Shown piece by piece: positions 2,952-18,496 of a stretch of DNA of 64,000 nt. The DNA comes from a virus (taxonomy: Duplodnaviria; Caudoviricetes). Location: the IMG/VR virus record IMGVR_UViG_3300035675_000001; one strand, 5' to 3'. Numbering within the stretch: position 1 is the stretch's first letter; every line of letters begins with the position of its first letter. The translations under genes and the position numbers were made by a program. The notes beneath the pieces were generated by a model that saw only the letters and a list, made by a program, of their open reading frames with translations, was not told the origin of the DNA and ran no database searches.

Positions 2952-2985
2952 GTCGGCATAACTACGCGGGGACTTGAGGACAGAA

Positions 2986-3060: not shown

Positions 3061-3061
3061 C

Positions 3062-3137: not shown

Positions 3138-3140
3138 AAA

Positions 3141-3215: not shown

Positions 3216-3235
3216 GAAATCGGTTCTAAAAAGGC

Positions 3236-3964: not shown

Positions 3965-4101
3965 CGACCTGGCTACTCATAGCGGTAGTTGCCGGACTGG
4001 CTTTCGCTGCCGGATGGTGGTGGAGGGGTCGCCGGAAACGCAGACAAATTCGGGTCGAGTTCGACATCGGCCCAGTAACATTGAAACAAAACTATGGTTA
4101 A
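3961..4101 (+). CDS. Small membrane protein (46 aa)
   Basis: MTTWLLIAVVAGLAFAAGWWWRGRRKRR...; ATGA overlap with upstream stop; GTAGTTA upstream. Confidence 0.5.
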   Translation: MTTWLLIAVVAGLAFAAGWWWRGRRKRRQIRVEFDIGPVTLKQNYG

Positions 4102-4630
4102 GATCACAACCGAACAACAAGTCCGTTTGCACGCGGCCTTCCTGACGGCAGCGGGTTCTCCCGCTCCGATTGAGGGAACGCCGGAATGGAGTGCCGCTCC
4201 TGCGGGAGTGGTCAACCTCATCGTGGACCCTGATGGCCGCGCAGCCCTTTGCCAGAGCGTAGCTGCTGGCACCGCCCAGGTGTCCGTCTCGGCTGACGCC
4301 GACCTTGGCACCGGGGTCCGAACAATCACCGGCACCATCGGGATCGAAGTCAGCGAAGCCTCTGCCGAAGCAGTGGAGATCACCGCCGATACGCCTGAGT
4401 TCAAGACCGTGACGCTTACCGTCACCGTTGAAATGCTCCCGGACGGCACGGCCAAGGTCACCGGCCACGGCAACCCCGACACGCTGTATCACGTCGAAGC
4501 CGCCGATGATGTCGCTGGCCCGTATGCTGAGATCGGGACCACCCTGTCGGATTCGACCGGCGTCGCTATCTTCATCGACCCGGATGCCGCTTCGCACACC
4601 ACTCGGTTTTATCGTCTTCGTTGGCCCTAA
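4094..4630 (+). CDS. Ig-like protein with Verrucomicrobia-type C-terminal domain
   Basis: Beta-rich N-terminal half; ends YHVEAADDVAGPY...FIDPDAASHTTRFYRLRWP. Confidence 0.65.
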   Translation: MVKITTEQQVRLHAAFLTAAGSPAPIEGTPEWSAAPAGVVNLIVDPDGRAALCQSVAAGTAQVSVSADADLGTGVRTITGTIGIEVSEASAEAVEITADTPEFKTVTLTVTVEMLPDGTAKVTGHGNPDTLYHVEAADDVAGPYAEIGTTLSDSTGVAIFIDPDAASHTTRFYRLRWP

Positions 4631-4701
4631 AGGCTGACGTTGTTGGTGGTCAGTCCAGTCGTTGACGGCCCGGAGCTGTTCTCCGGGCCGTTTCTTTGCA
4701 A

Positions 4702-4833
4702 TGGTGGGGACGATAATCCTTCAAGTTCGGCCCTATTCAGGCAAGGATTTTCGGAGGTTTATTTGAGACGGGATTTGAACCCGCGACCTCCCGCTTTTCA
4801 GGCGGGCGCTCTACCAGGCTGAGCTACGTCCCC
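4702..4833 (-). tRNA. tRNA-Phe(GAA) with a 55-nt insert between the T arm and the acceptor 3' strand
   Basis: 5' GGGGACG pairs with distal CGTCCCC-A-CCA; normal D arm; CCCGC-CTGAAAA-GCGGG; T-loop TTCAAAT; insert at 4713-4767. Confidence 0.8.
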
Positions 4834-4853
4834 ATAAATCTGTTCTACGCAAT

Positions 4854-5585
4854 ATGCTGACAATCGGAATCTTGAACTGCAAACGGCAGAATAACGTCGT
4901 GGCCCTGGTCAACCGTTATTCGGCCATGCCCATCGTCTCTCGCGTCACCGTGTGGAGCAGTCCGCCCGGCGACTTCCGCGTGAGCGACAACCCCAAACTC
5001 CTGACCGCGACCTGCGCCCCGGACTGGGGCATGTATGCCCGGTTCCAGTCGGTCCTCAACGCGCCCACGGAGTGGGTCATGACGGTCGATGACGACCTGT
5101 TCATCCCGGAGGAGTCGATCAAGGTCATGCTCGACGCCCGGATGAAGGACAAGGACAAGAGGATCAGCGGCATGTTCGGCAGACGGCCTTCCCAAACCCA
5201 GGGCTTTGCCGTGTTCAAAGACCTGGTGGACGAGGACTGCGAAATCGTCGTGGCCCGCGTCATGGTGTTTCACGTCAGCCTGATCGCCCGCTTCTTCGAT
5301 GTCGTGCGCGACCCGCGCTGGGAGGAGCTTTACGCCAAAGGCCGGGCCAATGGCTGGACAAAGACCACCAACATCGAGGACATCATCATGAGCTACACCG
5401 CGATGCGCGACACCGGCAGGCTCAACCAGATTCACAAGGTGCCCCACCAGGAGTTCGACGCGCCGGAGCCGATCTGGAAGATGCCGAACTTCTTCCCGTA
5501 TCGCCAAGCGGGCCTGACGTTCACCCAGCAGTTTTTCAACAACTGGTCCCACAGCGATCAGCCGACCGGCTGGACCGGCTGTTAA
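4854..5585 (+). CDS. GT-A fold glycosyltransferase (GT64/EXTL-like)
   Basis: VMTVDDDLFI DxD motif; NIEDIIMS resembles the EXTL NCEDI motif. Confidence 0.65.
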   Translation: MLTIGILNCKRQNNVVALVNRYSAMPIVSRVTVWSSPPGDFRVSDNPKLLTATCAPDWGMYARFQSVLNAPTEWVMTVDDDLFIPEESIKVMLDARMKDKDKRISGMFGRRPSQTQGFAVFKDLVDEDCEIVVARVMVFHVSLIARFFDVVRDPRWEELYAKGRANGWTKTTNIEDIIMSYTAMRDTGRLNQIHKVPHQEFDAPEPIWKMPNFFPYRQAGLTFTQQFFNNWSHSDQPTGWTGC

Positions 5586-5586
5586 A

Positions 5587-5661
5587 TGGTGCTCGCGGTT
5601 GGAATCCCACCAACGGCCTCAGCCTTCGCAGGGCTGCGCTCTATAACTGAGCTACGCGAGC
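5587..5661 (-). tRNA. tRNA-Arg(GCG)
   Basis: Loop CT-GCG-AA; T-loop TGGGATT. Confidence 0.9.
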
Positions 5662-5665
5662 AAAA

Positions 5666-5741
5666 TGGTGCCCCAAACTGGAATCTCACCAGTGGCCTTC
5701 GCCTTCGGAGGGCGACGCTCTATAGACTGAGCTACTGGGGC
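5666..5741 (-). tRNA. tRNA-Arg(CCG)
   Basis: Loop CT-CCG-AA; T-loop TGAGATT. Confidence 0.9.
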
Positions 5742-5742
5742 A

Positions 5743-5821
5743 TGGCGTTCCTGGCGGGACTCGCACCCGCTAGAGATTCGGCTTGAAAGGCCGACCGCTG
5801 GACGACTTTGCGCTCAGGAAC
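5743..5821 (-). tRNA. tRNA-Glu(TTC)
   Basis: Loop CT-TTC-AA; G73; T-loop TGCGAGT; A8. Confidence 0.88.
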
Positions 5822-5826
5822 AAAAA

Positions 5827-5903
5827 TGGTATCCCCGGTGGGATTCGCACCCACGATCTTCTGGTTGAGAACCAGGCGTGTTGGGCTGCTACACTACGGG
5901 GAC
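5827..5903 (-). tRNA. tRNA-Glu(CTC)
   Basis: Loop TT-CTC-AA; T-loop TGCGAAT. Confidence 0.9.
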
Positions 5904-5907
5904 AATC

Positions 5908-5977
5908 CACGGACAAGGAGAGCGACGTGGGAGGTTTCTCATTAGTGGTAAGATAACCCACATCAATTCGGCCCGTG
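5908..5977 (-). ncRNA. Minimal Y RNA-like RNA (Ro60-binding stem)
   Basis: CACGGGCCGA...GTGGGTTATCT...CCCAC...CCTTGTCCGTG; bulged-C helix and GUUAUCU as in Y RNAs. Confidence 0.7.
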
Positions 5978-5981
5978 AAAG

Positions 5982-6056
5982 TGGTCCCTGGGATCGGTAA
6001 CGCACCGATGTCTCCGGTTTTTCAGACCGGCGCTAATCTATCTCAGCTACCCAGGG
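5982..6056 (-). tRNA. tRNA-Phe(GAA), uninterrupted copy
   Basis: Loop CT-GAA-AA; T-loop TGCGTTA. Confidence 0.9.
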
Positions 6057-6057
6057 T

Positions 6058-6243
6058 TCAAGGCTCCAGCGTTTCCGCGAGCAGGAGGGCTGCTGCGAGA
6101 CGACGCGCCTCCCTGCGCGTCAGATGATGATAGACGGTCTCGCCTGCGGATGAGGACAAACTGACCTTGATGAAATTGGATCGTCGGGTCTTGGAAACCT
6201 CCACCCGATACTGCTTCGCTTTGCTGACAAGACGGTAGCTCAC
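6058..6243 (-). CDS. Hypothetical protein
   Basis: 61-aa ORF; ATGA overlap with upstream gene. Confidence 0.5.
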   Translation of the reverse strand: MSYRLVSKAKQYRVEVSKTRRSNFIKVSLSSSAGETVYHHLTRREARRLAAALLLAETLEP

Positions 6244-6647
6244 TCAGGGAACCGGGGGAGTTTGTGATCGTCAGCCTGCTTCTCGTAATACTCCAGCTTG
6301 GACCGAATATCGTTCAGCACTTTGGCCAGCTCGGCAGCAAAGCTCACTGGCTCCGGTTCCACTTTGGCGTGAATGATGACCTTCAAATGATCGGCTGCTT
6401 TCTTCTGCGCCCGCATCTCGATGCGGGTTGCGCCCGCCGCCCAGGCGAAGAACAGCGAGTTCAAAAACGCCAGGATGTAATGTGCCGAGCTATGGGACGC
6501 CGCGACCTCGGTCAGACGATAGATGGTGATGACCACGATGCCCAGGAACACCAGCACCCAAATTCTCCGCTTCACGATACGGTAGAGCGTCGTCCACACG
6601 TAGAGGACGTAGAGCTGCAACAGGATCGCTATGACCAAAAATGCCAT
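6240..6647 (-). CDS. Membrane protein (3 TM segments plus basic/coiled tail)
   Basis: Three hydrophobic stretches; GTATTTA upstream. Confidence 0.6.
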   Translation of the reverse strand: MAFLVIAILLQLYVLYVWTTLYRIVKRRIWVLVFLGIVVITIYRLTEVAASHSSAHYILAFLNSLFFAWAAGATRIEMRAQKKAADHLKVIIHAKVEPEPVSFAAELAKVLNDIRSKLEYYEKQADDHKLPRFPE

Positions 6648-6673
6648 GCCGGTCTAAATACGCAGGCTGAAAT

Positions 6674-6750
6674 TGGTAGCCGCAGTTGGAGTTGCACCAA
6701 CGACCTGACGCTTATCAAGCGCCTGCTCTGACTAGCTGAGCTACGCGGCC
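6674..6750 (-). tRNA. tRNA-Ile(GAT)
   Basis: Loop TT-GAT-AA; T-loop TGCAACT. Confidence 0.9.
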
Positions 6751-6753
6751 ACA

Positions 6754-6841
6754 TGGCGGCTGGTGCAGGATTTCCACCTGCGCGGGTTTTACCCCGTCCA
6801 CGGTTTTCGAGACCGGAACCTTGGTGCTCGGTCAACCAGCC
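6754..6841 (-). tRNA. tRNA-Ser(CGA)
   Basis: Long variable arm, G73; loop CT-CGA-AA; T-loop TGGAAAT. Confidence 0.9.
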
Positions 6842-6851
6842 GGAAAGATTT

Positions 6852-6975
6852 GACGGACAAGGGGAACCAAGGAGTTTTTGCTACCTCCGAGGTCACGGCA
6901 CATGGAGCCGTGAGTGAGAGTCGAACTCACATCGCTTCATTTACAGTGAAGATAATCCTCAGTAATCGGCCCGTC
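6852..6975 (-). ncRNA. YrlA-type Y RNA enclosing a circularly permuted tRNA-Tyr(GTA)-like domain
   Basis: GACGGGCCGA/TTGTCCGTC Ro stem; ACTGAGGA/TCCTTGGT; CTTCA-CTGTAAA-TGAAG; GTGAG-TTCGACT-CTCAC; TCACGGC-TCCATGT-GCCGTGA. Confidence 0.8.
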
Positions 6976-6979
6976 AAAA

Positions 6980-7067
6980 TGGCGGATGGTGCAGGATTTC
7001 CACCTGCGCTGGTGTTACCCAGTCCTCCGGCTTCCAACCGGGAACCTTGGTGCTCGGTCAACCATCC
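6980..7067 (-). tRNA. tRNA-Ser(GGA)
   Basis: Long variable arm, G73; loop TT-GGA-AG; T-loop TGGAAAT. Confidence 0.9.
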
Positions 7068-7084
7068 AAAAAGTTTACAAAAAG

Positions 7085-7173
7085 TGGCGGAGGGCACAGG
7101 AGTCCAACCTGTTCAGGTTTCACCCTGGCGTCGGTTTTCAAGACCGCCCCGTTCGACGTTCCGGCAGCCCTCC
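7085..7173 (-). tRNA. tRNA-Ser(TGA)
   Basis: Long variable arm, G73; loop CT-TGA-AA; T-loop TTGGACT. Confidence 0.9.
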
Positions 7174-7194
7174 GCAAGAAGGTAGTTAGCGCAG

Positions 7195-7641
7195 ATGCCG
7201 GAAAAGACATTAGCCTATCACCTGCTGCAAAAGTTTGAAGCAGACCGGGAGAAGATCGAGCGATACTCGTCCATAGCGGAACACTGCCCGCTCCCCGCGT
7301 TTATCGCTGGATCAGACGGCATTTCCATCCTCTACATCAACCCGGCCTACCGGGAATTGACCGGACGCAACATCGAAGAACTCCAGGACGGCAAGTGGGT
7401 TACGTCGGTTATTCACCCGGACGATCAGGCGTCAGTTATTGATGCCTGGAAATTGTTTACAAAAACTGTCCAGCGACAGGCTCATCATCACCGCTATGTT
7501 CACGTCGATGGCCGGGTCACGGATGCGGTGACTGTAGTGGACCGGGTTGAAGGCAACGGCTACGTTGGCTTCATCATTCCCCACTGCGGCAAAGAGGACT
7601 GCCCGATGCAACAGTTGGTCCCACTTGGTCACCACACGTAA
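7195..7641 (+). CDS. Stand-alone PAS-domain protein
   Basis: ILYINPAYRELTGRNIEELQDGKWVTSVIHPDD is a typical PAS_3/PAS_4 signature; no output domain. Confidence 0.8.
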   Translation: MPEKTLAYHLLQKFEADREKIERYSSIAEHCPLPAFIAGSDGISILYINPAYRELTGRNIEELQDGKWVTSVIHPDDQASVIDAWKLFTKTVQRQAHHHRYVHVDGRVTDAVTVVDRVEGNGYVGFIIPHCGKEDCPMQQLVPLGHHT

Positions 7642-7642
7642 A

Positions 7643-7718
7643 TGGTGCTCGCGGCAGGAATCTCACCTGCGACCAGCCGCTTAGGAAACGACCGCTCTGA
7701 TAACTGAGCTACGCGAGC
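7643..7718 (-). tRNA. tRNA-Arg(CCT)
   Basis: Loop TT-CCT-AA; T-loop TGAGATT. Confidence 0.9.
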
Positions 7719-7719
7719 G

Positions 7720-7796
7720 TGGCACCCCTGCCAGGATTCCCACCTGGATCAGACCGCTTAGAAGACGGTCGCTCTAATACATTGAGCTACAGGGGC
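7720..7796 (-). tRNA. tRNA-Arg(TCT)
   Basis: Loop CT-TCT-AA; T-loop TGGGAAT. Confidence 0.9.
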
Positions 7797-7808
7797 TTAC
7801 AACTAAAA

Positions 7809-7884
7809 TGGCTGCCAAGACTGGGGACGATCCAGTAACCGCCCGGTTAACAGCCGGGTGCTCTACCAGTTGAGCTACTTGGCA
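7809..7884 (-). tRNA. tRNA-Asn(GTT)
   Basis: T1-A72, G73; loop CT-GTT-AA; T-loop ATCGTCC. Confidence 0.9.
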
Positions 7885-7890
7885 ATGAAA

Positions 7891-8106
7891 TCAGGCCGGA
7901 ATCGGCGTCGAGCCAGGGATGAACGGGGCTTTGGTGCCGCCGCCTCCACTGGGGTTGGCCGGATTCGGAATGAGCGTGGACTCGGCAACGTAATCGGCAG
8001 CGGTCCCGCCGCCGCCATCAGCCTTGGCCGAGTTTGGAACGAGGGTCGCGCCTGGAGGCGTCGTATCGCCCGTCCGAACCGGCGCTGGAATGATCGTCAT
8101 GTCCAT
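7891..8106 (-). CDS. Small Pro/Gly-rich protein with internal duplication
   Basis: TLVPNSAKADGGGGT / TLIPNPANPSGGGGT; GTAGTTA 6 nt upstream. Confidence 0.55.
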   Translation of the reverse strand: MDMTIIPAPVRTGDTTPPGATLVPNSAKADGGGGTAADYVAESTLIPNPANPSGGGGTKAPFIPGSTPIPA

Positions 8107-8122
8107 CGCTCTTAACTACAAA

Positions 8123-8199
8123 TGGTCAGCGCGGAGGGCTTCGATCCCTCGGCCTCCTGGCCCCGAACCAGGCGCTCTGCCAAGCTGAGCTACGCGCTG
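8123..8199 (-). tRNA. tRNA-Pro(CGG)
   Basis: C1-G72, A73, G37; T-loop ATCGAAG. Confidence 0.9.
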
Positions 8200-8206
8200 A
8201 TGAAAA

Positions 8207-8282
8207 TGGTCGGGCTGGCCGGGTATGATCCGGCGACCTTCTGGCCCCCAGCCAGACGCGCTGCCAACTGCGCTACAGCCCG
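8207..8282 (-). tRNA. tRNA-Pro(GGG)
   Basis: C1-G72; loop CT-GGG-GG; T-loop ATCATAC. Confidence 0.9.
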
Positions 8283-8286
8283 AAAA

Positions 8287-8361
8287 TGGTCAGGGCGGGG
8301 AGTTTCGCAATCCCGGCCTCCTGGTCCCAAGCCAGGCGCTCTGCTTCTGAGCTACGCCCTG
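8287..8361 (-). tRNA. tRNA-Pro(TGG)
   Basis: C1-G72; loop CT-TGG-GA; T-loop TGCGAAA with a T53.C61 mismatch. Confidence 0.85.
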
Positions 8362-8387
8362 ATCGCCGTGTAGTTACGGTGAAAGTT

Positions 8388-10454
8388 ATGGAAATCACAT
8401 ACGTTCCAGACCCGTCCAAAGCGGATGGCAAACCGGTTGTTGCCGAGGTTGTTGCCCTGGGCACGACTGTTGTTCAATTCGCCACGCCACAACAGGTTTA
8501 CGTGACGGGCGGGACGCTCGCCACGAACGTCCAGTTCACCGGCTCAATTTCGACCGACATCGGCAACGTCAAAATCGAAGACCAGAACGGAAACTACGCC
8601 GAAATGCCAGCGGCGAGTGACGCCAAGACTGGAGCCAACAAAGCCCTACTCGTTCAGCACGTTGACGAAACCGGAACTCCGCTCCGCCAATCGACGCAGG
8701 TCAGCATCATGCAGAACCAGGGGACGCTCGCAACAAGCGCCCTCCAGGCTACCGGAATCGCACTGGCCTCGGTCATCCTGAACAACCAGGGCACCCAGGC
8801 CACAGCAGCTCTCCAGCAAGCAGGCAACGGCGCTCTGAGCGTAATTGTAAACAACCAGGGCACCCAGGCCACGGTCGCAGCTCAGGATAGCCAGACAGCG
8901 ATCCTGGCCGTGATGATGAACAATCAGGGCACGCTGACTCCGGCAACGGACTCGACGACCCTGACGGCGGTCATGAACAACCAGGGGACGCAGGCGACCT
9001 CGGCCAAGCAAGATGCCACGAACAACCTGCTGACGGTCATCATGAACGCGCAGGGGACGCAGGCGACCAGCGAGGTCGCTGAAAGCATTACGTTCTCGGC
9101 CATCCTGAACAACCAAGGAACCCTGGCGACCAGCGCCCAACAGACCGCCGCACAGGCGACGCTGACCACGGTCATGAACAGCCAGGGGACACAGAGCACG
9201 GCGCTGCTCTCGCCCATCCTGAATGCTTTCGGAACTCTCGCTACGGCGGCAGCTCAAGCCAACGGAAATACAGCTCTCCAAAATCTGCTGACGCCCATCC
9301 TGAACGCCCAGGGCACGCAGAGCACTGCCCTGCTGTTGCCCATCCTGAACAACCAGGGAACTCAGGCGACCAGCGCCAACCAGGAGACCCAAATCACGGC
9401 GCTGAACACGCTGATCGACACCCTGCGGTCGGTCGATACGGTTGGGACCAACCTCGAAGTGACGCTGTTCAATGGCGTTTACGCAGTCGGACCCAGTGTG
9501 GCTGCCAACGTCAACGGCTACACCCGGCACACCGTCCAGCACGTCATCATGAACGGCAGCGTGGCCGCGCACATCGAGACCAGCCTTGACGGCACGACCT
9601 GGAATACCGAAGCGGTCGATACGGCTTCAAATCTTCAACGGCTCACGGGAGCCTGCAAATACATCCGCGCCGTTTACATGGGCGGAGCGGGCACGCTCAG
9701 CACCTTCCTGAACTCGGCAGCCGGAAACGGAGGCGGAGCGCCCAACGGCGCAGGCCAAGCCGAGCTTTGCATCGTCGGCACCGTTGCCAGCACCCTGGGG
9801 TCAGCCGTGGCTTTCGAGACGGGAGGGGCCAACAGCTTAGGCTTCCACTACGAGCCGCCTGCCGGTTCGACTTCGATTTTTGAAGGTTCGTGGGACGGCA
9901 GCCATTGGGTTGACATAACGCTGCGCCAAATGGGAGCGCACGGCTACACAAGCATCACCGATGACACCCACCAGGATTGGGTCGGTTCATGCGCGACATG
10001 GCGCTATTTTCGCCTGCGAATCACCCAGGGCGGCACAGGTGTTGGAGTTATCAGAGGCAGGTTCAGCTATGCTCCCAGCACGATTGAAGGCGTCGAAAAC
10101 CAGGCGATGCCCCACCGCATCGGCGCATCATCGCAATCAAAGAGCTTTTCCTTTACTGGCGTCACAAGCAACGGGACCATTTGGGCACCCACTACATCTT
10201 ACCACCGGCTCTACATCACGGACTTGTTCTTCACGGTCGATGCTACGACTACTGTCATCTTCTCCGATGGCAGCAACGCAGAAGGCAAACTCGTCTTCAA
10301 GGGCAAATTCAAACCCGCGTCTGGCGAAAGCTCCTATGTCCCGGCTGCTTTTTCACTCCCGCACGTATTCACCGGACCCAACCGGGCGCTGATGTTCACG
10401 CAAAGCGGAGGCGCAGAAGTTGACGGCGTGGTTCACGGCTACGAAGCAGAATAA
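8388..10454 (+). CDS. Repeat-rich fibre-like (probable virion) protein
   Basis: Many (N/S/A)QGT(Q/L)AT repeats followed by beta-rich C-terminal domains; start moved out of tRNA-Pro (in-frame GTG at 8379 also possible). Confidence 0.7.
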   Translation: MEITYVPDPSKADGKPVVAEVVALGTTVVQFATPQQVYVTGGTLATNVQFTGSISTDIGNVKIEDQNGNYAEMPAASDAKTGANKALLVQHVDETGTPLRQSTQVSIMQNQGTLATSALQATGIALASVILNNQGTQATAALQQAGNGALSVIVNNQGTQATVAAQDSQTAILAVMMNNQGTLTPATDSTTLTAVMNNQGTQATSAKQDATNNLLTVIMNAQGTQATSEVAESITFSAILNNQGTLATSAQQTAAQATLTTVMNSQGTQSTALLSPILNAFGTLATAAAQANGNTALQNLLTPILNAQGTQSTALLLPILNNQGTQATSANQETQITALNTLIDTLRSVDTVGTNLEVTLFNGVYAVGPSVAANVNGYTRHTVQHVIMNGSVAAHIETSLDGTTWNTEAVDTASNLQRLTGACKYIRAVYMGGAGTLSTFLNSAAGNGGGAPNGAGQAELCIVGTVASTLGSAVAFETGGANSLGFHYEPPAGSTSIFEGSWDGSHWVDITLRQMGAHGYTSITDDTHQDWVGSCATWRYFRLRITQGGTGVGVIRGRFSYAPSTIEGVENQAMPHRIGASSQSKSFSFTGVTSNGTIWAPTTSYHRLYITDLFFTVDATTTVIFSDGSNAEGKLVFKGKFKPASGESSYVPAAFSLPHVFTGPNRALMFTQSGGAEVDGVVHGYEAE

Positions 10455-10458
10455 TTTT

Positions 10459-12417
10459 ATGAGCCTACTCGACATCAATCAGACTCAGGTCGCAGCAGTC
10501 ATGGCCCCGGTTATCAATAACCAGGGGACACAGGCGACGGAGCAGACGCTCATCACCGTCATGAACAGTCAGGGCACGCAGGCAACTGCTGCCCTCCAGG
10601 CCAACAGCAACGCTCTCCTGACCACCATCATGAACAACCAGGGGACGCTCGCCGATTACGACGACGCGACTCTCCAGGCGGTCATGAACAACCAGGGGAC
10701 GTTGGCCACGAGCAGCAAACAGGACGCTCAAACTGCCATCCTGGGTGCGATGCTGAACAACCAGGGAACACTGACTCCTGTAACTGGTGGAGCCACAGAA
10801 ATCACTTTGGTCCGACTTGCTAATGACCAAGGCACGTTGGCCACGAGTGCGAATCAAGCCGCGAGCAATGCCTTGTTAACGGTCGTAATGAATGACCAGG
10901 GCACATTGGCGACCAGCTCCTATCAGGCGGTCCAGCTCGAACTCCTGGGCTTGATTCTGAACAGCCAGGGAACTCAAAACACGTCCAGCCTGGCGACCAG
11001 CGCCAACCAGGCGCAGGCCAACAGCTCCCTCACAGTCATTCAGAACAACCAAGGAACGCAGGCCACGGCATCGAACCAAAGCACTGAAATCAGCCTGCTC
11101 AGCCTGATCCTGAACGCCCAGGGGACTCAAGGCGAAGGGCTGAACGCACTCTCACAACAGCAAGCGGACACGGTAACGACTTACGGACCAACCGGAACTC
11201 TAGCCTCAGCGCGAGTGGCCACGCTGATGACGACTGATCCGAACTCGGTAAGCGTTGACGCATTTGGTCGGCTGCGCGTCAGCAACGCGGACTACCGGTT
11301 TGACGGCCAGCTTGTTTACCAGGTCAACGCTGACCTATGGGACTCCGCCTGGAACAGCACTGGCACGGTGACCTATGACCGCAAGAACCGAATGGCTCAG
11401 CTCACTTGCGCGGCTAACGGCACCAGCGTCATGCAGAGCCACTATCACGTCCCCTACACGCCCGGACGCGGCCAGCTCGCTTTCGTCACGTTTGCCGGAA
11501 CGGCTGCGCCAGCCGAAAACACCTACCACCGGGTAGGCTACTTCGACGAGACAAACGGTATTTTCCTGGAGCGCACCAGCGCGGGAGCAAGCTTGACACT
11601 CAAAAGCTCAACCGATGCGGGGTCCGAGACAGTTTTACAGGCAAACTGGAACATCGACAAGATGGACGGCACCGGCCCCAGCGGGTTAACGCTCGACCTG
11701 ACCAAATCTCAAATCCTGTTTATCCAGCTCCAGGCGCTCTACATCGGTCGTGTAATCGTCGGCTTCGACATCGACGGCGTTGCCTGGCCGGTCCATCAGT
11801 TCACGCACGCCAACAAGTTCGTCAAGCCCTACATTGGCAACGCGAGCTTGCCGGTGCGCTACGAAGTGGGTTCAACGGGCGTCAATACCGCCCAGCTTAA
11901 TCCCGTCTGCGCCTCCGTCATCAGCGAAGGCGGCGGGCCGCTGATCGACATTCCGGCCCGCACATTCACCGCAGGCAACGGTGCAACACCCATCAGCGTA
12001 AACGCCCGGAGACCCGTGCTTTCAATCAGGCCCAAAGCGCAGTTTAACCAAAACCAGAACGAAGGCATTGTTCTGCCGTCTGACCTGTCGATCCGAAATT
12101 CGACTGCGGACATCTACGTTGAAGTCATCCGCAACGCCGTGCTCACGGGAGCATCCTGGACAAGCGTGGATGCGGTCAACAGCGTTTGTGAATATGATGT
12201 CGCGGCAACTGCCGTCAGCGGAGGCCAAACGGTTTTCTCAGGCTACAGCAACGTCTCGTCAGGGCTATCAACAAGCATCAAGGACAACCTGCTCAGCCGC
12301 CTGACCATCGTCTATTCAGAACTTCTTCAAACAGCGGACACGCTCACCATCGTCTGCACATCTCTCGGCGGTGCTGCTTCAACTGTCGCCGCGCTTAACT
12401 GGAAAGAAATTCGTTGA
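10459..12417 (+). CDS. Repeat-rich fibre-like protein, paralog of the upstream gene in its N-terminal half
   Basis: NNQGT(Q/L)AT repeats, then VSVDAFGRLRVS and a beta-rich C-terminal domain of a kind seen in phage virion proteins. Confidence 0.7.
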   Translation: MSLLDINQTQVAAVMAPVINNQGTQATEQTLITVMNSQGTQATAALQANSNALLTTIMNNQGTLADYDDATLQAVMNNQGTLATSSKQDAQTAILGAMLNNQGTLTPVTGGATEITLVRLANDQGTLATSANQAASNALLTVVMNDQGTLATSSYQAVQLELLGLILNSQGTQNTSSLATSANQAQANSSLTVIQNNQGTQATASNQSTEISLLSLILNAQGTQGEGLNALSQQQADTVTTYGPTGTLASARVATLMTTDPNSVSVDAFGRLRVSNADYRFDGQLVYQVNADLWDSAWNSTGTVTYDRKNRMAQLTCAANGTSVMQSHYHVPYTPGRGQLAFVTFAGTAAPAENTYHRVGYFDETNGIFLERTSAGASLTLKSSTDAGSETVLQANWNIDKMDGTGPSGLTLDLTKSQILFIQLQALYIGRVIVGFDIDGVAWPVHQFTHANKFVKPYIGNASLPVRYEVGSTGVNTAQLNPVCASVISEGGGPLIDIPARTFTAGNGATPISVNARRPVLSIRPKAQFNQNQNEGIVLPSDLSIRNSTADIYVEVIRNAVLTGASWTSVDAVNSVCEYDVAATAVSGGQTVFSGYSNVSSGLSTSIKDNLLSRLTIVYSELLQTADTLTIVCTSLGGAASTVAALNWKEIR

Positions 12418-12502
12418 CGTAAGCCAGTCACGCCGGTCGCTGGCATAACCAACGACCGGCATGGCAGGGGCGTGTTGCTGCTCTGCTTCATCAGCAGGAC
12501 AA

Positions 12503-12579
12503 TGGCGGGCACGACCGGACTCGCACCGGCTGACTTCGCCGTGACAGGGCGCTGATTCGACTCCTTCATCTCCGTGCCC
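12503..12579 (-). tRNA. tRNA-Asp(GTC)
   Basis: G73; loop CT-GTC-AC; T-loop TGCGAGT; G8. Confidence 0.9.
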
Positions 12580-12585
12580 GTAAAA

Positions 12586-12673
12586 TGGTGGGAGGCGCTG
12601 GTTACGCTCCAGCCGCCACTACCCGTGATGTTGAAGGCACCGGTTTTACAGACCGGCCACGGGACCGCCTCCC
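12586..12673 (-). tRNA. tRNA-Tyr(GTA)-like RNA lacking a D arm
   Basis: Acceptor GGGAGGC/GCCTCCC, A-CCA; CCGGT-CTGTAAA-ACCGG; only 10 nt between acceptor and anticodon stems; T-loop AGCGTAA. Confidence 0.75.
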
Positions 12674-12675
12674 AT

Positions 12676-12764
12676 TTACCCAGGTCCAAACCACTGTGGC
12701 TCTGACCCCGTTACTTCCGCTGTGGCGCGTAGGGGCCTTCCTCCACTCTTTCTGGACTGGGCAA
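12676..12764 (-). ncRNA. Candidate rod-like structured RNA
   Basis: TTGCCCAG/CTGGGTAA, TCCAGA/TTTGGA, GTGG/CCAC, GGCCCC/GGGGTC nested stems. Confidence 0.5.
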
Positions 12765-12775
12765 GTAGCTAAAGC

Positions 12776-13297
12776 ATGAAATTGATACCGGTTCTCATGG
12801 CGTGTTTGGTTCTTTCAGGCTGTATGATCGTCAACGTGAAAGAACGGGGCTTTCCGCCCGAACACCAAATTGTAAACTTTGATCGGGTGACCAGCGACCT
12901 CTACCGGGGCGCTCAACCGACCATCGCCAGCCTCGATTACCTCAAGTCGTTGGGGATCAAAAGCGTCGTCTGCCTGCGAGAACCTTCTGACATTCTGCCG
13001 GGCGAACCAATATCGGTCTCGGCGCTCGGCCTGCGCTTCGAGAACCTGCCGATGGACGGCGTGACGGCTCCCAGCGAAGCGGACATAGACAAGATGCTGG
13101 ACGTGATCGACGCGCTGCCCAAGCCGGTCTTCATCCACTGCCAGTTCGGCTGCGACCGCACCGGGACCGTGATCGCCTGCTGGCGCATCAAGCATGGCTG
13201 GGACAACGACGCAGCCTACCGGGAAGCCAAGCAATACGGCATCTCGCCGCTGCTCCCGGCGCTTCATCATCTCATCAAGACCTACAAGAAAAAGTAA
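12776..13297 (+). CDS. Cys-based protein tyrosine/dual-specificity phosphatase, lipoprotein
   Basis: HCQFGCDRTG (CX5R), LYRGAQP; lipobox LVLSGC. Confidence 0.85.
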   Translation: MKLIPVLMACLVLSGCMIVNVKERGFPPEHQIVNFDRVTSDLYRGAQPTIASLDYLKSLGIKSVVCLREPSDILPGEPISVSALGLRFENLPMDGVTAPSEADIDKMLDVIDALPKPVFIHCQFGCDRTGTVIACWRIKHGWDNDAAYREAKQYGISPLLPALHHLIKTYKKK

Positions 13298-13385
13298 CGG
13301 GCAAGGGTTGGCGTCGGAGATGCCTGGTTGCCCAGGCGGTTTCCATACCAATGATAGAAGATAACCGACATCCATTCGGCCCGTT
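13296..13385 (-). ncRNA. Y RNA-like RNA (Ro60-binding stem)
   Basis: AACGGGCCGA...GTCGGTTATCT...CCGAC...CCTTGCCCGTT; inner hairpins TTCTAT/ATGGAA and GCCTGG-GCAA-CCAGGC. Confidence 0.75.
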
Positions 13386-13387
13386 GA

Positions 13388-13490
13388 ATCACCACCGGTA
13401 TTGCAACCCGCACCGCACATCAGCACTTCTTCGGCCTCGACGGCTGTGCTTTCGCTGGTCATGGGAGTCGAACCCATTGTTCACGGTGAT
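13388..13490 (-). ncRNA. tRNA-mimic RNA with a 5'-proximal canonical T arm (YrlA-like order)
   Basis: ATCACC/GGTGAT closing stem; ATGGG-TTCGACT-CCCAT; further hairpins; no anticodon arm or CCA end. Confidence 0.6.
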
Positions 13491-13498
13491 GAAAATTA

Positions 13499-13571
13499 TG
13501 GCACGGAGTGTGGGTGCTGCCCCCACCAGGACTGGTTTTGGAGACCGGTCTGCACGGCTGGTGCCCTCCGT
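13499..13571 (-). tRNA. tRNA-Trp(CCA), atypical compact fold
   Basis: G73-CCA; loop CT-CCA-AA; D arm GCAC-CAGCC-GTGC; extended anticodon stem; T-loop GGCAGCA. Confidence 0.8.
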
Positions 13572-13572
13572 A

Positions 13573-13666
13573 TTCAGCACCCCCTTTTACGCTGACGGTC
13601 AGAGTCGCGTTCACAGGCTCGCACGACCGGCCTGCTGCCGTCCCACGGATAAGCCAAGGTGCCGAA
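13573..13666 (-). ncRNA. Candidate pseudoknotted RNA
   Basis: TTCGGCACC/GGTGCTGAA; GACGG/CCGTC; CAGGC/GCCTG whose loop GGTCGTG can pair with downstream CGCGACT. Confidence 0.5.
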
Positions 13667-13668
13667 AT

Positions 13669-13744
13669 TGGTGGAAGCGCCGGGACTCGCACCCGGAACA
13701 TCGACGATGCCATCGTCGCGCTCTACTGATTGAGCTACGCCCCC
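13669..13744 (-). tRNA. tRNA-Ala(GGC)
   Basis: G3.T70, A32-T38; T-loop TGCGAGT. Confidence 0.9.
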
Positions 13745-13751
13745 GAAAGAG

Positions 13752-13843
13752 CCGGGCCGAGTTTGCTTCGAGGTTGCAACCCCGTTGCCTTATCGTGCGG
13801 GATGTGCGCCCGCCCTCCGTTCATGAGACGGAGTGCTCCCCGG
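13752..13843 (-). ncRNA. Permuted tRNA-like RNA with a CAT anticodon-like arm
   Basis: CCGGG/CCCGG closure; CTCCGT-CTCATGA-ACGGAG; GCGGG-CGCACAT-CCCGC; no CCA end. Confidence 0.5.
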
Positions 13844-13854
13844 ATACCGACGTT

Positions 13855-13928
13855 TGGTGGAATCGGAGGGAGTCCCACCCTCATCTCCCGCGTGCGAGGC
13901 GGGCGCTCTAGTGCTGAGCTACGACCCC
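13855..13928 (-). tRNA. tRNA-Ala(CGC)
   Basis: G3.T70; loop CT-CGC-AC; T-loop TGGGACT. Confidence 0.9.
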
Positions 13929-13933
13929 AAAAA

Positions 13934-14797
13934 ATGAAACCGCGCTGCGTCTCGATCTTTCCGACCAACCACTGCAACGCGCACTGCTACTACTGCGCCT
14001 ACCAGACCAGTTACGCCTTCGCGGATGCGACCACGATGTGCCGCAAGACGGACCAGCTCTCACGCGAGCTGCTGGCCAAGGCGCTGGACGAGGCGAAAAT
14101 CTGCAACAACATCGAAATCTCTGGCGGCGGCGAACCCCTTTGCCATCCCGACTTCGCCTGGTTTGCCAGGGAGGTCGTGGCCCGTGGGATCGGGGCCAAG
14201 CTCATTACCAACGGCGTGCTGCTCACCGGCGAGCTGCTGGAAGTCTCCGCCCAGCTCAGCTACGTGGAGTTCTCGATCAATTACTACGACCACCTGAGCT
14301 TCGAGGCCAACCGCAGTATGCCTCGTGGCTGGTTTGAAACCGTGACGGCCAACGTCAGAAATCTGATGAGCAGCCCGCACTCCTGCGTGATCGGGGCCAA
14401 GGTCGTGCTCACAGGCCGGAACTACCAGACGCTCCCGCAGATCAAGCAATACCTGGGGTCGCTGGGAATCCATCGCCTGGTCGTGACGCCCAGCTACAGC
14501 CGAGACGCGAGCGACGTGCCCCCGCCTGCGGTGTTTGGGATGGACCGGATCGCGCACGTCAAACCGAAGTGCGCTTACTGCCAGCGCCGAATCGACCATC
14601 CGGTCATCGGAGCTGACGGGAAATACTACGCCTGCTGCTACTTCACCTACATGCCGTCCATGCAGATCGGCGACCTGGCCACGCAGAGCTTGTCAAACGT
14701 GTTAGACAACGGACCCGTGTTCGACCAGGGCCTCTGCTGCCGGGTCGAGCAGGTGATCGCCGACTACCGGCGCGGGGTCGTCACTGCGTTTCCGTAA
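13934..14797 (+). CDS. Radical SAM protein with C-terminal Cys-rich (twitch/SPASM-like) region
   Basis: CNAHCYYC, SGGGEPL, TNG, YACCY; start moved out of tRNA-Ala. Confidence 0.85.
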   Translation: MKPRCVSIFPTNHCNAHCYYCAYQTSYAFADATTMCRKTDQLSRELLAKALDEAKICNNIEISGGGEPLCHPDFAWFAREVVARGIGAKLITNGVLLTGELLEVSAQLSYVEFSINYYDHLSFEANRSMPRGWFETVTANVRNLMSSPHSCVIGAKVVLTGRNYQTLPQIKQYLGSLGIHRLVVTPSYSRDASDVPPPAVFGMDRIAHVKPKCAYCQRRIDHPVIGADGKYYACCYFTYMPSMQIGDLATQSLSNVLDNGPVFDQGLCCRVEQVIADYRRGVVTAFP

Positions 14798-14799
14798 AA

Positions 14800-14928
14800 G
14801 GAGCCATGCGGCGGGATTTGAACCCGCGCTCTGGATACTCGTGTCACCTTTCTCCAGGATTTGGTGCGACGCGCCACTTGGCCTCCCCGAAGTGTGACAC
14901 CCCCAGGTCGGTTGCAGTCGCCACAGGC
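14800..14928 (-). ncRNA. tRNA/tmRNA-like RNA (129 nt) with canonical T arm
   Basis: GCCTGTG/CGCATGGC acceptor-like stem with one bulge; CGAC then CTGG..GTGTCAC/GTGACAC..CCAG; GCGGG-TTCAAAT-CCCGC; ends TCC. Confidence 0.6.
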
Positions 14929-14934
14929 ATAAAT

Positions 14935-15010
14935 TGGTGGAAGTGATGGGACTCGCACCCACAACCTCAAGCTTGCAAAGCTCGCGCTCTACTAATTGAG
15001 CTACACCCCC
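14935..15010 (-). tRNA. tRNA-Ala(TGC)
   Basis: G3.T70; loop TT-TGC-AA; T-loop TGCGAGT. Confidence 0.9.
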
Positions 15011-15012
15011 AA

Positions 15013-15135
15013 TCCGAAACCGCCTGCTGTTCGGCAAGCCTCACTCCCCACAGCCGTAGAGGGACCGGTTTCCCCGGCTGAGCGTAGCGGCATTCAGCCA
15101 GGCGGAAGTCTCTTTCAACCGCCCAGCTTATCGGA
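15013..15135 (-). ncRNA. Candidate multi-hairpin structured RNA
   Basis: TCCGA/TCGGA closure; GGGCGG/CCGCCT; GGCTGA/TCAGCC; CCGG-GGAAA-CCGG. Confidence 0.45.
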
Positions 15136-15141
15136 AAATAT

Positions 15142-15266
15142 ACGGAGGCCGGTATCCAGCCCGGACTCACGGCCTTGAACGGAACGCCTGTTGCGGTCAG
15201 CGAAATCGCCTCCTACCAGGTGTCCACCGCAGCCGGGAGCTTCGCATTGGGTTGCGAGCACTCCGC
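15142..15266 (-). ncRNA. Candidate tRNA-like structured RNA
   Basis: GCGGAG/CTCCGT closure; TCGCA-ACCCAA-TGCGA; TGCGGT/ACCGCA; CCGG-GCTGGATA-CCGG. Confidence 0.45.
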
Positions 15267-15272
15267 GTTAAA

Positions 15273-15346
15273 TGGAGCGGGTGAGCGGTAACGATCCGCC
15301 GTCTCAGCGTTGGCAACGCCGTATTCTGCCATTGAACCACACCCGC
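15273..15346 (-). tRNA. tRNA-Gly(GCC)
   Basis: T73; loop TT-GCC-AA; T-loop ATCGTTA. Confidence 0.9.
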
Positions 15347-15351
15347 AGAAA

Positions 15352-15429
15352 TGGGGTGGACGACCGGACTTGCACCGGCACCGGGCAGGTTCACAACCTG
15401 CGGCTACCACTATTTGAGCTACGTCCACC
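15352..15429 (-). tRNA. tRNA-His(GTG)
   Basis: G-1:C73 encoded; loop TT-GTG-AA; T-loop TGCAAGT. Confidence 0.9.
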
Positions 15430-15433
15430 ATGA

Positions 15434-15494
15434 TGGTTTTAGGAAAACCCATCGTTTTACTGTTCCACTAAAACGATGGGTTTTCCTAAAACCA
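15434..15494. repeat. Perfect 26-bp inverted repeat with 9-nt spacer
   Basis: tggttttaggaaaacccatcgtttta-ctgttccac-taaaacgatgggttttcctaaaacca. Confidence 0.95.
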
Positions 15495-15547
15495 AGAAAT
15501 CAAAGCCCCACGGCCTCCACCTATGTTTGTGGATTGGGCCGTGGGGC
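15494..15547 (-). terminator. Possible intrinsic terminator
   Basis: GCCCCACGGCC/GGCCGTGGGGC stem followed by TTTGATTTCTT (interrupted U tract). Confidence 0.5.
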
Positions 15548-15973: not shown

Positions 15974-17983
15974 TTATTCCTCGAAATTTTTTGTCACGAC
16001 GGGCATCGGAACACCGAGCATTTGATACAATTCCTCCTCCGAAATGACCCGCGTGCCGTGCTTCATCGCGCCTGCGGCCTTGTTGTTGCCGCCGCCAACA
16101 CCTTGCACCAGAAAATCCACCTTCTTGGTGACCTGCCCCTTGACGATGCCGCCGTGCTGCTCGATCAACGCGCTCACGTCATCGCGGCGACCGCTCTGGA
16201 GAGCGCCGGTGATGCAGAAGGTTTTTCCGCTCAGCACGCCTGCGGCTTTGCGGTCCTCCTCAAAGTAGAACTCGTGGCCCGCCAGCGCCGTCAGCTCGGT
16301 CTCGATGTTCTTGTCCAGCCAGGTCATGAGGCTGATGGTGCGCGATTCTTCGATCAACTCCTGGACTTCATCCTGGTTGGCCGACATCTCGCTCAAGCTG
16401 CTGAACCGCCCGGCCAAAGTCTGGCAGGTGACCTTGCCGATCTCGTCGATATTCAGCGCCGACAGCTTGCGCCAGAGCGGTGCGGACTTGGCCTTCTCCA
16501 ACCCCTCGCGCATTTTCTTGGCCGTGGCCGGTTTCAAAAAGCTGAAATCCTTGATCGCATACAGGTCCGAAAGCTTCTTCACGTCGGCCTTGTCCATCAG
16601 CGTCCGCACCGTCGTTTCACCACAGCCGTCAATGTCGAGAGCGTCCTTGCCCACCGCGTAAACCAGCCGAGCAAACACCTGGTCGTCGCAGTCAGGATTG
16701 ACACAGTAGGAGTGAACCATGCCTGGGGGCCGCTCCAGGGGAGTCGAGCAGCATGGGCAGGTCTTGGGCATCTGGTAGCTCTTGCCGTGATTCTTCTTGG
16801 TCGGCGAAGGCCGCGCCAGGCCCACGATCTTCGGGATCACTTCGCCGCTGCGCTGGACGAGCACGTAATCGCCCACGTCAATACCGAGACGGTCCAGCTC
16901 ATCCTGGTTGCAGAGCGAAGCGCGGGCGACCATCGCCCCACCCAAGTTCACCGGCTGCAATTCCGCAACCGGCGTCACCTGACCGGTCTTGCCAACCTGG
17001 ATGATGACGGCGTTCAGGCGCGTCTCCTTGGTCTCAGGCGGGAACTTGAAAGCCGCGCCCCACTTCGGGGACCGCTCCCCTTCGCCCAGGTCGCGCTGCT
17101 TTTCCAGGGAGTTGACCTTTATGACCAGTCCGTCCGTATCCATGTCCAGGGCCTTGCGGTAGCCGTCCAGGTGTTGGATCGCGGGCATCAGCTCCTCGTT
17201 GGCCAGACAGGTCATATAGGGCAACCCAGCCATGTCCTGGCGGACGGGGAGGGTCAGGGTGCTGGGGAAGCCCAGGCTTTCGAGGTATTCCAGCAGGGCC
17301 TCCTGGGTGGTCACGGCTGCTGGCAGGTCGGAAGGAACGCTGTAGGCGGCAAAGCTGAGCTTACGCTTGGCGACCTCCCTGGAATCTTTGAGGAGCATAC
17401 TGCCGGAAGCTCCATTGCGCGGGTTAGCCAAGCGGTCGCCTTCGGACACGCTGGCGTTGTAGGCGTTGAACGAGGTCAAGCTCCAGTAGATTTCGCCTCG
17501 GACCTCGATGGTGACCGGCTTTCGGAGAACCAGGGGGATGGAGTGGACCGTCCTGGCGTTCTCGGTCACGTCTGCGCCCTCGGTGCCATTTCCACGGGTT
17601 ACCGCCTGGATGAGCTGGCCCTCCTTGTAGCTCAGGTGAAGGCTGAGGCCGTCGATTTTCATTTCCAGGATAACCTCCTGGTCCTCCAGGCCGTCGAAAA
17701 ATGTGGCGACTTCCTCGGCATTGTTGACATTATCCAGCGAGAGCATCTTGACCTTGTGCCGGATTTTTCGTAGCCCGTTGGGAATCGGGCAGCCCACGCG
17801 CATGGTGGGTGAGTTGGCGTCGGCCATTTCCGGGTGGTCTCGCTCCAGGGCAACCAGCTCACGGAACTTCTTGTCATACTCCTGGTCGGAGATGGACGGG
17901 GCGTTCGCCACGTAGTAGCGAAACGAGTGATCGGTCAGCTCCTTGCGGAGCGCCAGAATCTTTTGTGCGTCTGTCATGCTCAT
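15974..17983 (-). CDS. ligA: NAD-dependent DNA ligase
   Basis: EMKIDG (KxDG), TRGNG, SGEVIPK, Zn finger CPCC...C, C-terminal BRCT. Confidence 0.95.
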   Translation of the reverse strand: MSMTDAQKILALRKELTDHSFRYYVANAPSISDQEYDKKFRELVALERDHPEMADANSPTMRVGCPIPNGLRKIRHKVKMLSLDNVNNAEEVATFFDGLEDQEVILEMKIDGLSLHLSYKEGQLIQAVTRGNGTEGADVTENARTVHSIPLVLRKPVTIEVRGEIYWSLTSFNAYNASVSEGDRLANPRNGASGSMLLKDSREVAKRKLSFAAYSVPSDLPAAVTTQEALLEYLESLGFPSTLTLPVRQDMAGLPYMTCLANEELMPAIQHLDGYRKALDMDTDGLVIKVNSLEKQRDLGEGERSPKWGAAFKFPPETKETRLNAVIIQVGKTGQVTPVAELQPVNLGGAMVARASLCNQDELDRLGIDVGDYVLVQRSGEVIPKIVGLARPSPTKKNHGKSYQMPKTCPCCSTPLERPPGMVHSYCVNPDCDDQVFARLVYAVGKDALDIDGCGETTVRTLMDKADVKKLSDLYAIKDFSFLKPATAKKMREGLEKAKSAPLWRKLSALNIDEIGKVTCQTLAGRFSSLSEMSANQDEVQELIEESRTISLMTWLDKNIETELTALAGHEFYFEEDRKAAGVLSGKTFCITGALQSGRRDDVSALIEQHGGIVKGQVTKKVDFLVQGVGGGNNKAAGAMKHGTRVISEEELYQMLGVPMPVVTKNFEE

Positions 17984-18043: not shown

Positions 18044-18496
18044 ATGATGCGTGACGTGTTCCTGGACCTGCTCTACGCCTGCGGAGGAATCTCCGGTTTG
18101 GCGATCACCATTGCCATCGTGAAAGCTGCCCACGATTACGTGCGCGGAAAGATGTTTCAGCCTAAGCCACAGGTATTTCTGACTACGGCCACGGCAGGCA
18201 CCACGGCGGGCGCAACGGCCACAACCAGCCTATCGGCCAACTTCATCGCTCCGGCTCCACAGCCGGTTCAGACAGCGCCGGTCCTGGTGCAAAAAGTCGA
18301 GCCAGTTGACAGCACTTTTCCCCCTCCCGAACCCCGCGAATCCGTCCCGCCCCAAAATGAGTTTCTGCTGGAGTGCGGCAACTGCCACAAGAACATCAAA
18401 ACCCCGCCCATCAAGGTGGACGCGAAGGGGCCGGGAAAAACAGAGATGCGCTACCGCTGCGAGCACTGCGGAGCAACGGTAGCCGTGAAAGTTTAG
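18044..18496 (+). CDS. Membrane-anchored protein with C-terminal zinc ribbon
   Basis: N-terminal TM segment; CGNC...CEHC. Confidence 0.65.
   Translation: MMRDVFLDLLYACGGISGLAITIAIVKAAHDYVRGKMFQPKPQVFLTTATAGTTAGATATTSLSANFIAPAPQPVQTAPVLVQKVEPVDSTFPPPEPRESVPPQNEFLLECGNCHKNIKTPPIKVDAKGPGKTEMRYRCEHCGATVAVKV

Follow-up and report, generated by a model that had tools for sequence, protein, structure and literature searches.

A conserved, anticodon-less, tRNA-shaped RNA gene in a jumbo-phage tRNA array, with a predicted layout like that of T4 species 1 RNA

Among the products of phage tRNA clusters are stable RNAs that are shaped like tRNAs and have no explained role, T4 rnaC (species 1 RNA) being the textbook case. 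Here, we ask what is encoded by a 129-nt element embedded in the tRNA array of another phage, which has the acceptor and T arms of a tRNA but no evident means of decoding. A reading of this DNA made from the sequence alone had proposed a miniature tmRNA-like RNA, stripped of its tag-coding domain, that might interfere with trans-translation as a decoy for SmpB or EF-Tu. A phage mini-tmRNA that blocks ribosome rescue would be the more striking claim, but it does not hold.

The stretch of DNA analyzed (the window; 64,000 nt) is part of a jumbo-phage-like contig, and the longest contig found to encode the marker protein described below is 222 kb. The element's phage is a jumbo phage, rich in GC, whose DNA polymerase belongs to family A. 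Its minus-strand tRNA array spans approximately positions 600 to 15430 of the window, and the element begins 6 nt past the tRNA-Ala(UGC) CCA, its other end lying 3 nt away from the stop codon of a radical SAM gene on the opposite strand (Table 1). The 3′ end reads UCC and is followed by four U residues. The identical sequence is present in a JGI assembly (L048), so the element is no assembly error. The radical SAM gene was considered as a partner and rejected, since the two are not codistributed: the gene is not beside the RNA in the related loci L052, L053, and L057, and it is present in L051 without the RNA. At normal (gathering and E-value) thresholds, neither ARAGORN nor Rfam called the element, the sole Rfam match being that of its T arm to the tmRNA model. 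Likewise, blastn of phage and plasmid records returned tRNA or T-arm matches only and no copy of the element; the family is in no Rfam model, in no annotated phage or plasmid record among those searched, and nowhere described in the literature that we searched. The window has 3 instances of a perfect 5-bp T arm capped by a UUCRA loop, versus 0.07 in mononucleotide shuffles; the single-sequence minimum free energy of the window copy is unremarkable (z = -0.12).

Table 1. Positions of the element, its predicted parts, its neighbors, and its orthologs (window coordinates unless a locus is named)
Feature	Position	Strand	Remarks
Whole RNA gene	14800..14928	-	129 nt, nt 1 = 14928; tRNA-shaped, anticodon-less, two predicted kissing hairpins
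tRNA-Ala(UGC), upstream neighbor in same array	14935..15010	-	6-nt spacer to element, ending AU
Radical SAM/SPASM gene	13934..14797	+	Ends 3 nt from element 3′ end; context, not partner
Acceptor stem 5′ strand, nt 1-7	14922..14928	-	Pairs with 14803-14810 in all copies; compensatory C2-G to G2-C
Acceptor 3′ strand, bulged nt 123, discriminator U127, then CC	14800..14810	-	Encoded CCA in L044 alone
D-like stem 5′ strand, nt 8-12	14917..14921	-	Directly after acceptor, no connector; pairs with nt 59-63
D-like stem 3′ strand, nt 59-63	14866..14870	-	Partner of nt 8-12
Arm 1, nt 18-47	14882..14911	-	~12-bp hairpin inserted in D loop; CGAC within stem
Arm 1 loop GUGUCAC, nt 29-35, predicted kissing strand	14894..14900	-	Invariant in all copies
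D-loop-like segment AGUGG, nt 51-55	14874..14878	-	G54 and G55 invariant
8-nt A-rich linker, D-like stem to arm 2, nt 64-71	14858..14865	-	AAAUC invariant
Arm 2, nt 72-98	14831..14857	-	Anticodon-arm position; 5-bp stem; loop of 17 nt (orthologs, 12-17 nt)
Arm 2 loop GUGACAC, nt 82-88	14841..14847	-	Predicted kissing partner of 14894-14900
Canonical T arm, UUCRA loop, nt 102-118	14811..14827	-	UUCRA in 6/6 copies; compensatory C-G to U-A in L044
Ortholog	L044:15104-15232
Ortholog	L052:16516-16641
Ortholog	L053:15401-15530
Ortholog	L057:16474-16603
Ortholog	L059:15033-15162

Using a phage-specific protein of 414 amino acids as the marker, we fetched syntenic loci and found orthologs of the element in five related phages, all within tRNA arrays and 68 to 95% identical to the window copy. 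L044 to L047 represent a single phage (marker identity, 90%) that carries the element, and L053 and L054 both carry it. The copies in L053, L057, and L059 are 94 to 95% identical to that of the window, versus 63 to 69% for the marker protein of those phages. The adjacent tRNA-Ala(UGC) gene is only 75% identical between the window and L053, a disparity with the element itself that indicates either strong selection or recent exchange. A tRNA-Ala gene lies immediately upstream of the element in L044, L053, and L057; in L052, another long RNA is directly upstream and tRNA-Ala is one RNA further up, and in L059, the element lies further downstream of a tRNA gene. By these comparisons, the element is a discrete, conserved, unannotated, non-decoding tRNA-shaped RNA gene, and we regard it as very likely that it is a real, selected RNA that lacks an anticodon.

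It is not, however, a fixture of this phage group. The element is absent from one relative (G001, 96% complete), and its site in L051 is occupied by a different tRNA-like RNA, which ends in CCA and whose anticodon and variable arms are enlarged (L051:6124-6232, minus strand); hence, the element is conserved but optional (dispensable). Neither was it found in the stretches fetched for L055, L056, L118, and L119. A related-locus search yielded one IMG/VR relative (G001) and none in GTDB. Exact-pattern scans gave chance matches only: 22 in metagenomes (mostly coding genes, such as an aconitase-like gene), 0, 0, 0, and 13 in successive scans of viral contigs, and 45 in GTDB genomes (coding genes). 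Thus, at the sensitivity used, no copy was seen in the phage, plasmid, IMG/VR, or GTDB collections. A covariance model of the element family (R1) found nothing in 151 genomes of one phylum, centered on a Verrucomicrobiota genome, and 4 others; that the host may be a member of the Verrucomicrobiota is our guess from tmRNA tags.

The array and its counterparts hold a number of other unusual RNAs. A tRNA-like RNA at 15139-15268 (minus strand), with an acceptor, a D-like hairpin, a long middle arm, a T-like hairpin, and no CCA, is conserved at L044:14897-15021. Next to it, at 15012-15137 (minus strand), is a 126-nt multihairpin RNA with a terminal stem, which is 82% identical in G001, missing in L044, and without an Rfam match. 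The long RNA directly upstream of the element in L052 (~16298-16510, plus strand) has a counterpart in L055 (~15220-15385, plus strand), the two representing a common structured RNA of 165 to 210 nt. The tRNA-shaped genes at L052:18613-18694, L053:18476-18557, L057:~18050-18135, and L001:16218-16308, two of which ARAGORN mislabels as Stop or Arg, have an intact D arm, a TTC T loop, CCA, and a middle arm that is not an anticodon arm. A long, near-perfect inverted repeat with arms of ~27 bp (15431-15497), just upstream of tRNA-His, is absent in L044 and was the source of spurious miRNA matches. Several ordinary tRNA genes that default ARAGORN missed were read by eye on the minus strand: Glu(UUC) at 5745-5821, Ser(CGA) at 6753-6841, Cys(GCA) at 2985-3061, Thr(CGU) at 3065-3137, Val(UAC) at 3144-3215, Thr(UGU) at ~2135-2208, Asp(GUC) at 12503-12579, and Trp(CCA) at ~13498-13572.

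How the element folds was judged from six copies (the window, L044, L052, L053, L057, and L059) that represent about three lineages. Four similar strands (nt 23-26, 39-42, 72-75, and 95-98) permit two folds. The first is a nested long helix, in which pairing of nt 8-12 with nt 59-63 would be a pseudoknot spanning the distance between the core and the end of a 20-bp arm. In the second, a D-like stem encloses arm 1 and is followed by an 8-nt linker and arm 2, and the loops of the two arms kiss via the 7-bp complement that the sequence-only reading had assigned to P2. The RNAalifold consensus of the orthologs is the second fold. Under this fold, 98.7% of cells are paired and 6 pairs show two-sided changes, versus 97.3% and 4 pairs for the nested fold when it is allowed the same pseudoknot, counts that rest on few events, there being only six copies from about three lineages. 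Moreover, even with the kiss left out, the nested part of the second fold is more stable by 1 to 11 kcal/mol in all six copies. The nested fold (P2a plus the inner helix) needs a register shift in L052, contains mismatches elsewhere, and loses a pair in L059, although its P2a also covaries (24/97), and the ensemble of the window copy splits about evenly between the two. The long interrupted helix that the sequence-only reading had equated with P2 of tmRNA is therefore the less supported of the two folds, by covariation and by energy, and we consider it likely that the modeled fold with a 6- to 7-bp kiss between two hairpin loops is the correct one.

Several parts of this predicted fold are well buttressed by comparison. 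The acceptor-like stem has 7 bp and a bulged U123, with pair probabilities of 0.78 to 0.98. Nucleotides 8-12 and 59-63 are paired in every copy, with a compensatory change from A-U to G-C, and the stem grows to 6 bp in L044 and L052. In arm 1, pair types vary at 6 positions within a single register, pairing being retained through UG/CG/AU, GU/GC/UG, GU/UA/UG/GC, and GC/CG/GU/AU exchanges, and in L052, the stem is a continuous 12 bp. All 5 pairs of arm 2 are kept in all copies, with one two-sided change, and the arm offers no anticodon loop of the U33/R37 type. The putative Sec (UCA) or Asp (GUC) anticodon that can be picked out in arm 1 was rejected, as it would sit in a loop of 6 to 9 nt, at the wrong position, and paired with arm 2. 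Of the loop-loop helix, 6 of 7 pairs are kept in every copy, with one change from U-A to U.G and none that is two sided; the probability of a 7-nt complement arising between two such loops by chance is 0.002. Finally, the invariant GG at nt 54-55 is a candidate for the elbow partner that G18 and G19 provide in tRNA (PMC4810234). A theta- or HDV-like ribozyme was also considered and rejected, given that the ends of the element form an acceptor stem and that there was no Rfam match.

A clue to function may lie in how the element differs from the coding tRNAs around it. ARAGORN called 23 ordinary tRNAs in the window, and not one of them has a T loop starting with TTC (a 24th call was a Y-RNA-fused Phe); the D-loop GG is missing in about 15 of the 24, by a rough count. 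This pattern (606-15428, minus strand), a T loop without TTC and often a D loop without GG, recurs in all of the relatives fetched, where the TTC loop is kept only by odd tRNA-like RNAs and by one initiator-type Met tRNA. CCA is encoded by all 23 ordinary tRNAs versus only one of the six copies of the element, which suggests that charging is probably not its job.

Overall, the explanation that we favor, with somewhat better than even confidence, is that the element is a phage-encoded, non-decoding tRNA mimic built like T4 rnaC. By analogy with the T4 tRNA cluster (PMC2330249) and with tRNA processing in general, it would be cotranscribed with the array, cut at its 5′ end by RNase P, and trimmed at its 3′ end, with CCA either added afterwards or not needed. 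The kiss between the two hairpin loops would lock the lower half of the RNA, leaving no free anticodon loop to decode or be cut, while the GG and the UUCRA T loop would together present a host-type elbow that the phage's own coding tRNAs have abandoned. The tRNA elbow is read by many proteins and RNAs (PMC4810234), and such a mimic could soak up a host factor that recognizes or breaks down tRNAs according to their shape, for example, a defense nuclease or a modifying enzyme. That the element works as a decoy for a host factor of this kind is our best guess, as it keeps the UUCRA loop that all 23 of the called tRNAs have lost, but it is a tentative one, and we would put it below an even chance. 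A bolder and fairly unlikely version holds that the elbows of the coding tRNAs have been rebuilt (without the T54-U55-C56 loop and often without GG) in order to escape an elbow-reading factor, with the element serving as the dedicated decoy, its loops hidden in the kiss. The contrast between coding tRNAs that lost the canonical T loop and a mimic that kept it is built in, and it makes the elbow decoy a concrete experiment. If an elbow-escape decoy proved true, it would also suggest a testable function for the whole class of species-1-like RNAs, unexplained in T4 for decades; ordinary T4 tRNAs, though, keep the D-loop GG, so the argument from elbow contrast does not itself carry over to rnaC.

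Alternatively, the RNA may be structural, serving as a cassette for RNase P and RNase Z cutting of the array transcript or, through intermolecular kissing, as the scaffold of a multimer in the manner of GOLLD and ROOL. The element does lie inside the array, always with an AU leader and with a CCA that is not kept, and kissing loops can pair between molecules as well as within one; furthermore, T4 rnaC has as yet no known function (PMC3014915, PMC9697503). Nevertheless, the flanking tRNAs already supply processing sites, the neighboring genes differ among phages, and a pure spacer needs neither invariant kissing loops nor 94 to 95% identity between distant phages. We judge this explanation unlikely.

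Another possibility, which we consider distinctly improbable, is that the competition between folds is itself the function, with the four strands swapping like a Holliday junction between a nested and a kissing form. Both forms can be drawn in six of six copies, with the near-even ensemble of the window copy as a further point in favor, and positions 24, 73, and 97 change together (U, U, and A to C, C, and G) in L044 and L052 in such a way that both pairings are kept. These two phages share other features, though, so the concerted change may have been a single event. The nested form also carries the defects in L052 and L059 noted above, is the less stable in every copy, and requires that nt 8-12 extend as far as the end of a 20-bp arm.

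The mini-tmRNA reading, in which a tRNA-like domain titrates SmpB (or EF-Tu) and dampens trans-translation, fares worse, and we hold it to be very unlikely. Its motifs were correctly seen: on the minus strand, the acceptor-like stem, CGAC (nt 19-22), the CUGG/CCAG and GUGUCAC/GUGACAC strands with exactly 46 nt between the latter two, and a perfect T arm (14827-14811) are all present, and G3.U70 is missing as reported, its place being taken by C3-G in all six copies. In the window copy, it is possible to draw CGAC, a helix, and a linker of 3 nt in the order found in tmRNA, and the T arm matches tmRNA positions 346-363. This 18-nt match is, however, all that the Rfam tmRNA model recognizes (17.3 bits versus a cutoff of 47), and the features that had suggested a tmRNA vary among the orthologs. 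CGAC and the AGC linker do occur in the window copy, but CGAC is replaced in L044 and L052 by CCAAA and CUGGC, and the linker between arm 2 and the T arm, AGC in four copies, is GGGA in those two; in the predicted fold, CGAC lies inside the arm 1 stem (C19-G46, a tandem G.A, and C22-G43). The 3′ UCC without a terminal A likewise holds for the window copy, but CCA is encoded at the end of the L044 copy, so the missing A is not a general feature. Reduced tmRNAs without an mRNA-like domain have a precedent in jakobid mitochondria, but these keep G3.U70 and A73 (PMC3590771), whereas no copy of the element has either, all six having C3-G and U73. Nor does the element contain a resume codon, a tag, an mRNA-like domain, or PK1 to PK4.

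As for the proposed target, the D loop that SmpB binds at the elbow has no stem and is single-stranded (PMC3968760). The corresponding segment of the element was described as unstructured, and yet nt 8-12 pair with nt 59-63 in a covarying stem of 5 to 6 bp, which leaves an SmpB decoy unsupported. A decoy role as such stays plausible; SmpB is not supported as its target, and EF-Tu would need an aminoacylated RNA, with CCA encoded in one of six copies. Furthermore, G001 encodes a full-length tmRNA (L020:3211-3641) with an unusually long tag. In this tmRNA, G3.U70, A73, CCA, and the GAC linker are all retained and the T loop has diverged, features that set it apart from the element, and no SmpB gene was found in G001; this phage group thus appears to use host SmpB rather than block it. 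The same genome also holds a 75-nt tRNA-like RNA after tRNA-Arg(UCU) (L019:8806-8880; G001 188806-188880, plus strand), with a canonical T arm, no CCA, a G.U at pair 3, an A discriminator, a long D segment ending in CGAC, and a 5-bp hairpin in place of the anticodon arm. The mini-tmRNA idea fits this RNA better than it does the window element, and it was the top nonmember match of R1 (19.9 bits).

Two remaining explanations are highly improbable. An intron-containing or decaying ordinary tRNA would suit the location among tRNA genes, an acceptor that starts with GCC and has U73 as in this phage's tRNA-Thr genes, and a CCA eroded in five of six copies, but inspection of the sequence revealed no group I or II core, no bulge-helix-bulge, and no removal of an inner segment that would give a loop of 7 nt bearing U33 and a purine at position 37, while the interior carries compensatory changes and is in some comparisons more conserved than the neighboring tRNA, and ARAGORN and Rfam make no call at normal thresholds. 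A Y-RNA-like partner of a phage Ro60 protein is no more credible, even though the array has several Y RNA-like genes, G001 encodes Ro60 (TROVE plus vWA; L020:5495-7144), and YrlA RNAs also keep a modified T loop (PMC4201824), given that we saw on inspection neither a GNCGAA motif nor the bulged stem bound by Ro60, that no Rfam YrlA match was obtained, and that the tRNA-like domain is not permuted as in YrlA, its 5′ and 3′ ends together forming the acceptor stem.

Among known systems, the class II tRNAs (Leu, Ser, and Tyr; RF00005) have the same order of arms as the element, and we take the UG-GCG...CGC-A around its D-like stem to recall them; class II ancestry is likely. The element differs from these in having no anticodon loop, a large D-loop insertion, an 8-nt linker, and a bulged acceptor. 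[quoted passage not shown] YrlA Y RNAs (RF02553; PMC4201824) are also tRNA mimics with a canonical T loop, and the phage group has both Ro60 and Y RNAs; the element, however, is without the Ro60-binding stem or GNCGAA and is not circularly permuted.

The closest parallel is T4 species 1 RNA (rnaC, or RNA C), annotated as a misc_RNA ("small, stable RNA") of 139 nt at 70908-71046 of NC_000866.4 (L121:1409-1547). It appears as a late RNA on Northern blots (PMC9697503), and its function is unknown (PMC3014915, PMC9697503, PMC12685909), with none described in the literature that we searched. It has no Rfam family; with blastn, it matches 751 phage records, nearly all of them unannotated. In its predicted fold, an irregular acceptor leads straight into a 3-bp stem that carries a long inserted arm; then come an 8-nt A-rich linker, a second arm, and a canonical T arm. 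The two loops complement each other and do not vary among four diverged T4-like phages, not even in those whose arm stems differ.

In predicted architecture, the element is built like rnaC, with the same layout and a like design, the features compared being those of the predicted consensus folds of both families, a list derived here and not a published definition. Both RNAs lie in a phage tRNA cluster and are of similar size (129 versus 139 nt). In both, the 7-bp acceptor is irregular, and the short D-like stem that follows it immediately carries a long inserted hairpin; an 8-nt A-rich linker lies in the same place, and a second hairpin occupies the anticodon position. They also share complementary conserved loops on both arms with a GUCA/UGAC core, a canonical UUCRA T arm, a U after the acceptor, an AU leader, and a CCA that is mostly not encoded. 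The differences are nonetheless considerable: outside the T arm, there is no alignable sequence; arm 1 has ~12 bp in the element versus ~27 bp in rnaC; arm 2 has 5 to 7 bp and a 12- to 17-nt loop in the element versus 10 bp and a loop of 6 nt in rnaC; each kissing strand is on the opposite arm; a bulge interrupts the acceptor of the element, and central mismatches interrupt that of rnaC; and the element's phage is a jumbo phage that is GC-rich and has a family A DNA polymerase, versus a T-even phage for rnaC. Covariance models of the two families do not cross-detect significantly: an rnaC model (R2) scored 6.8 bits against the window copy (T arm only) and 14.0 bits (E value of 0.12) against that of L052, no better than against ordinary tRNAs, and R1 scored 16.8 bits (E value of 0.012) against rnaC, both being small models of low power. 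Homology is thus unshown, and we have not filed the element as a member of the rnaC family. That an unrelated jumbo phage has the same predicted two-arm kissing layout, with another sequence and with the loops swapped, points to selection on shape.
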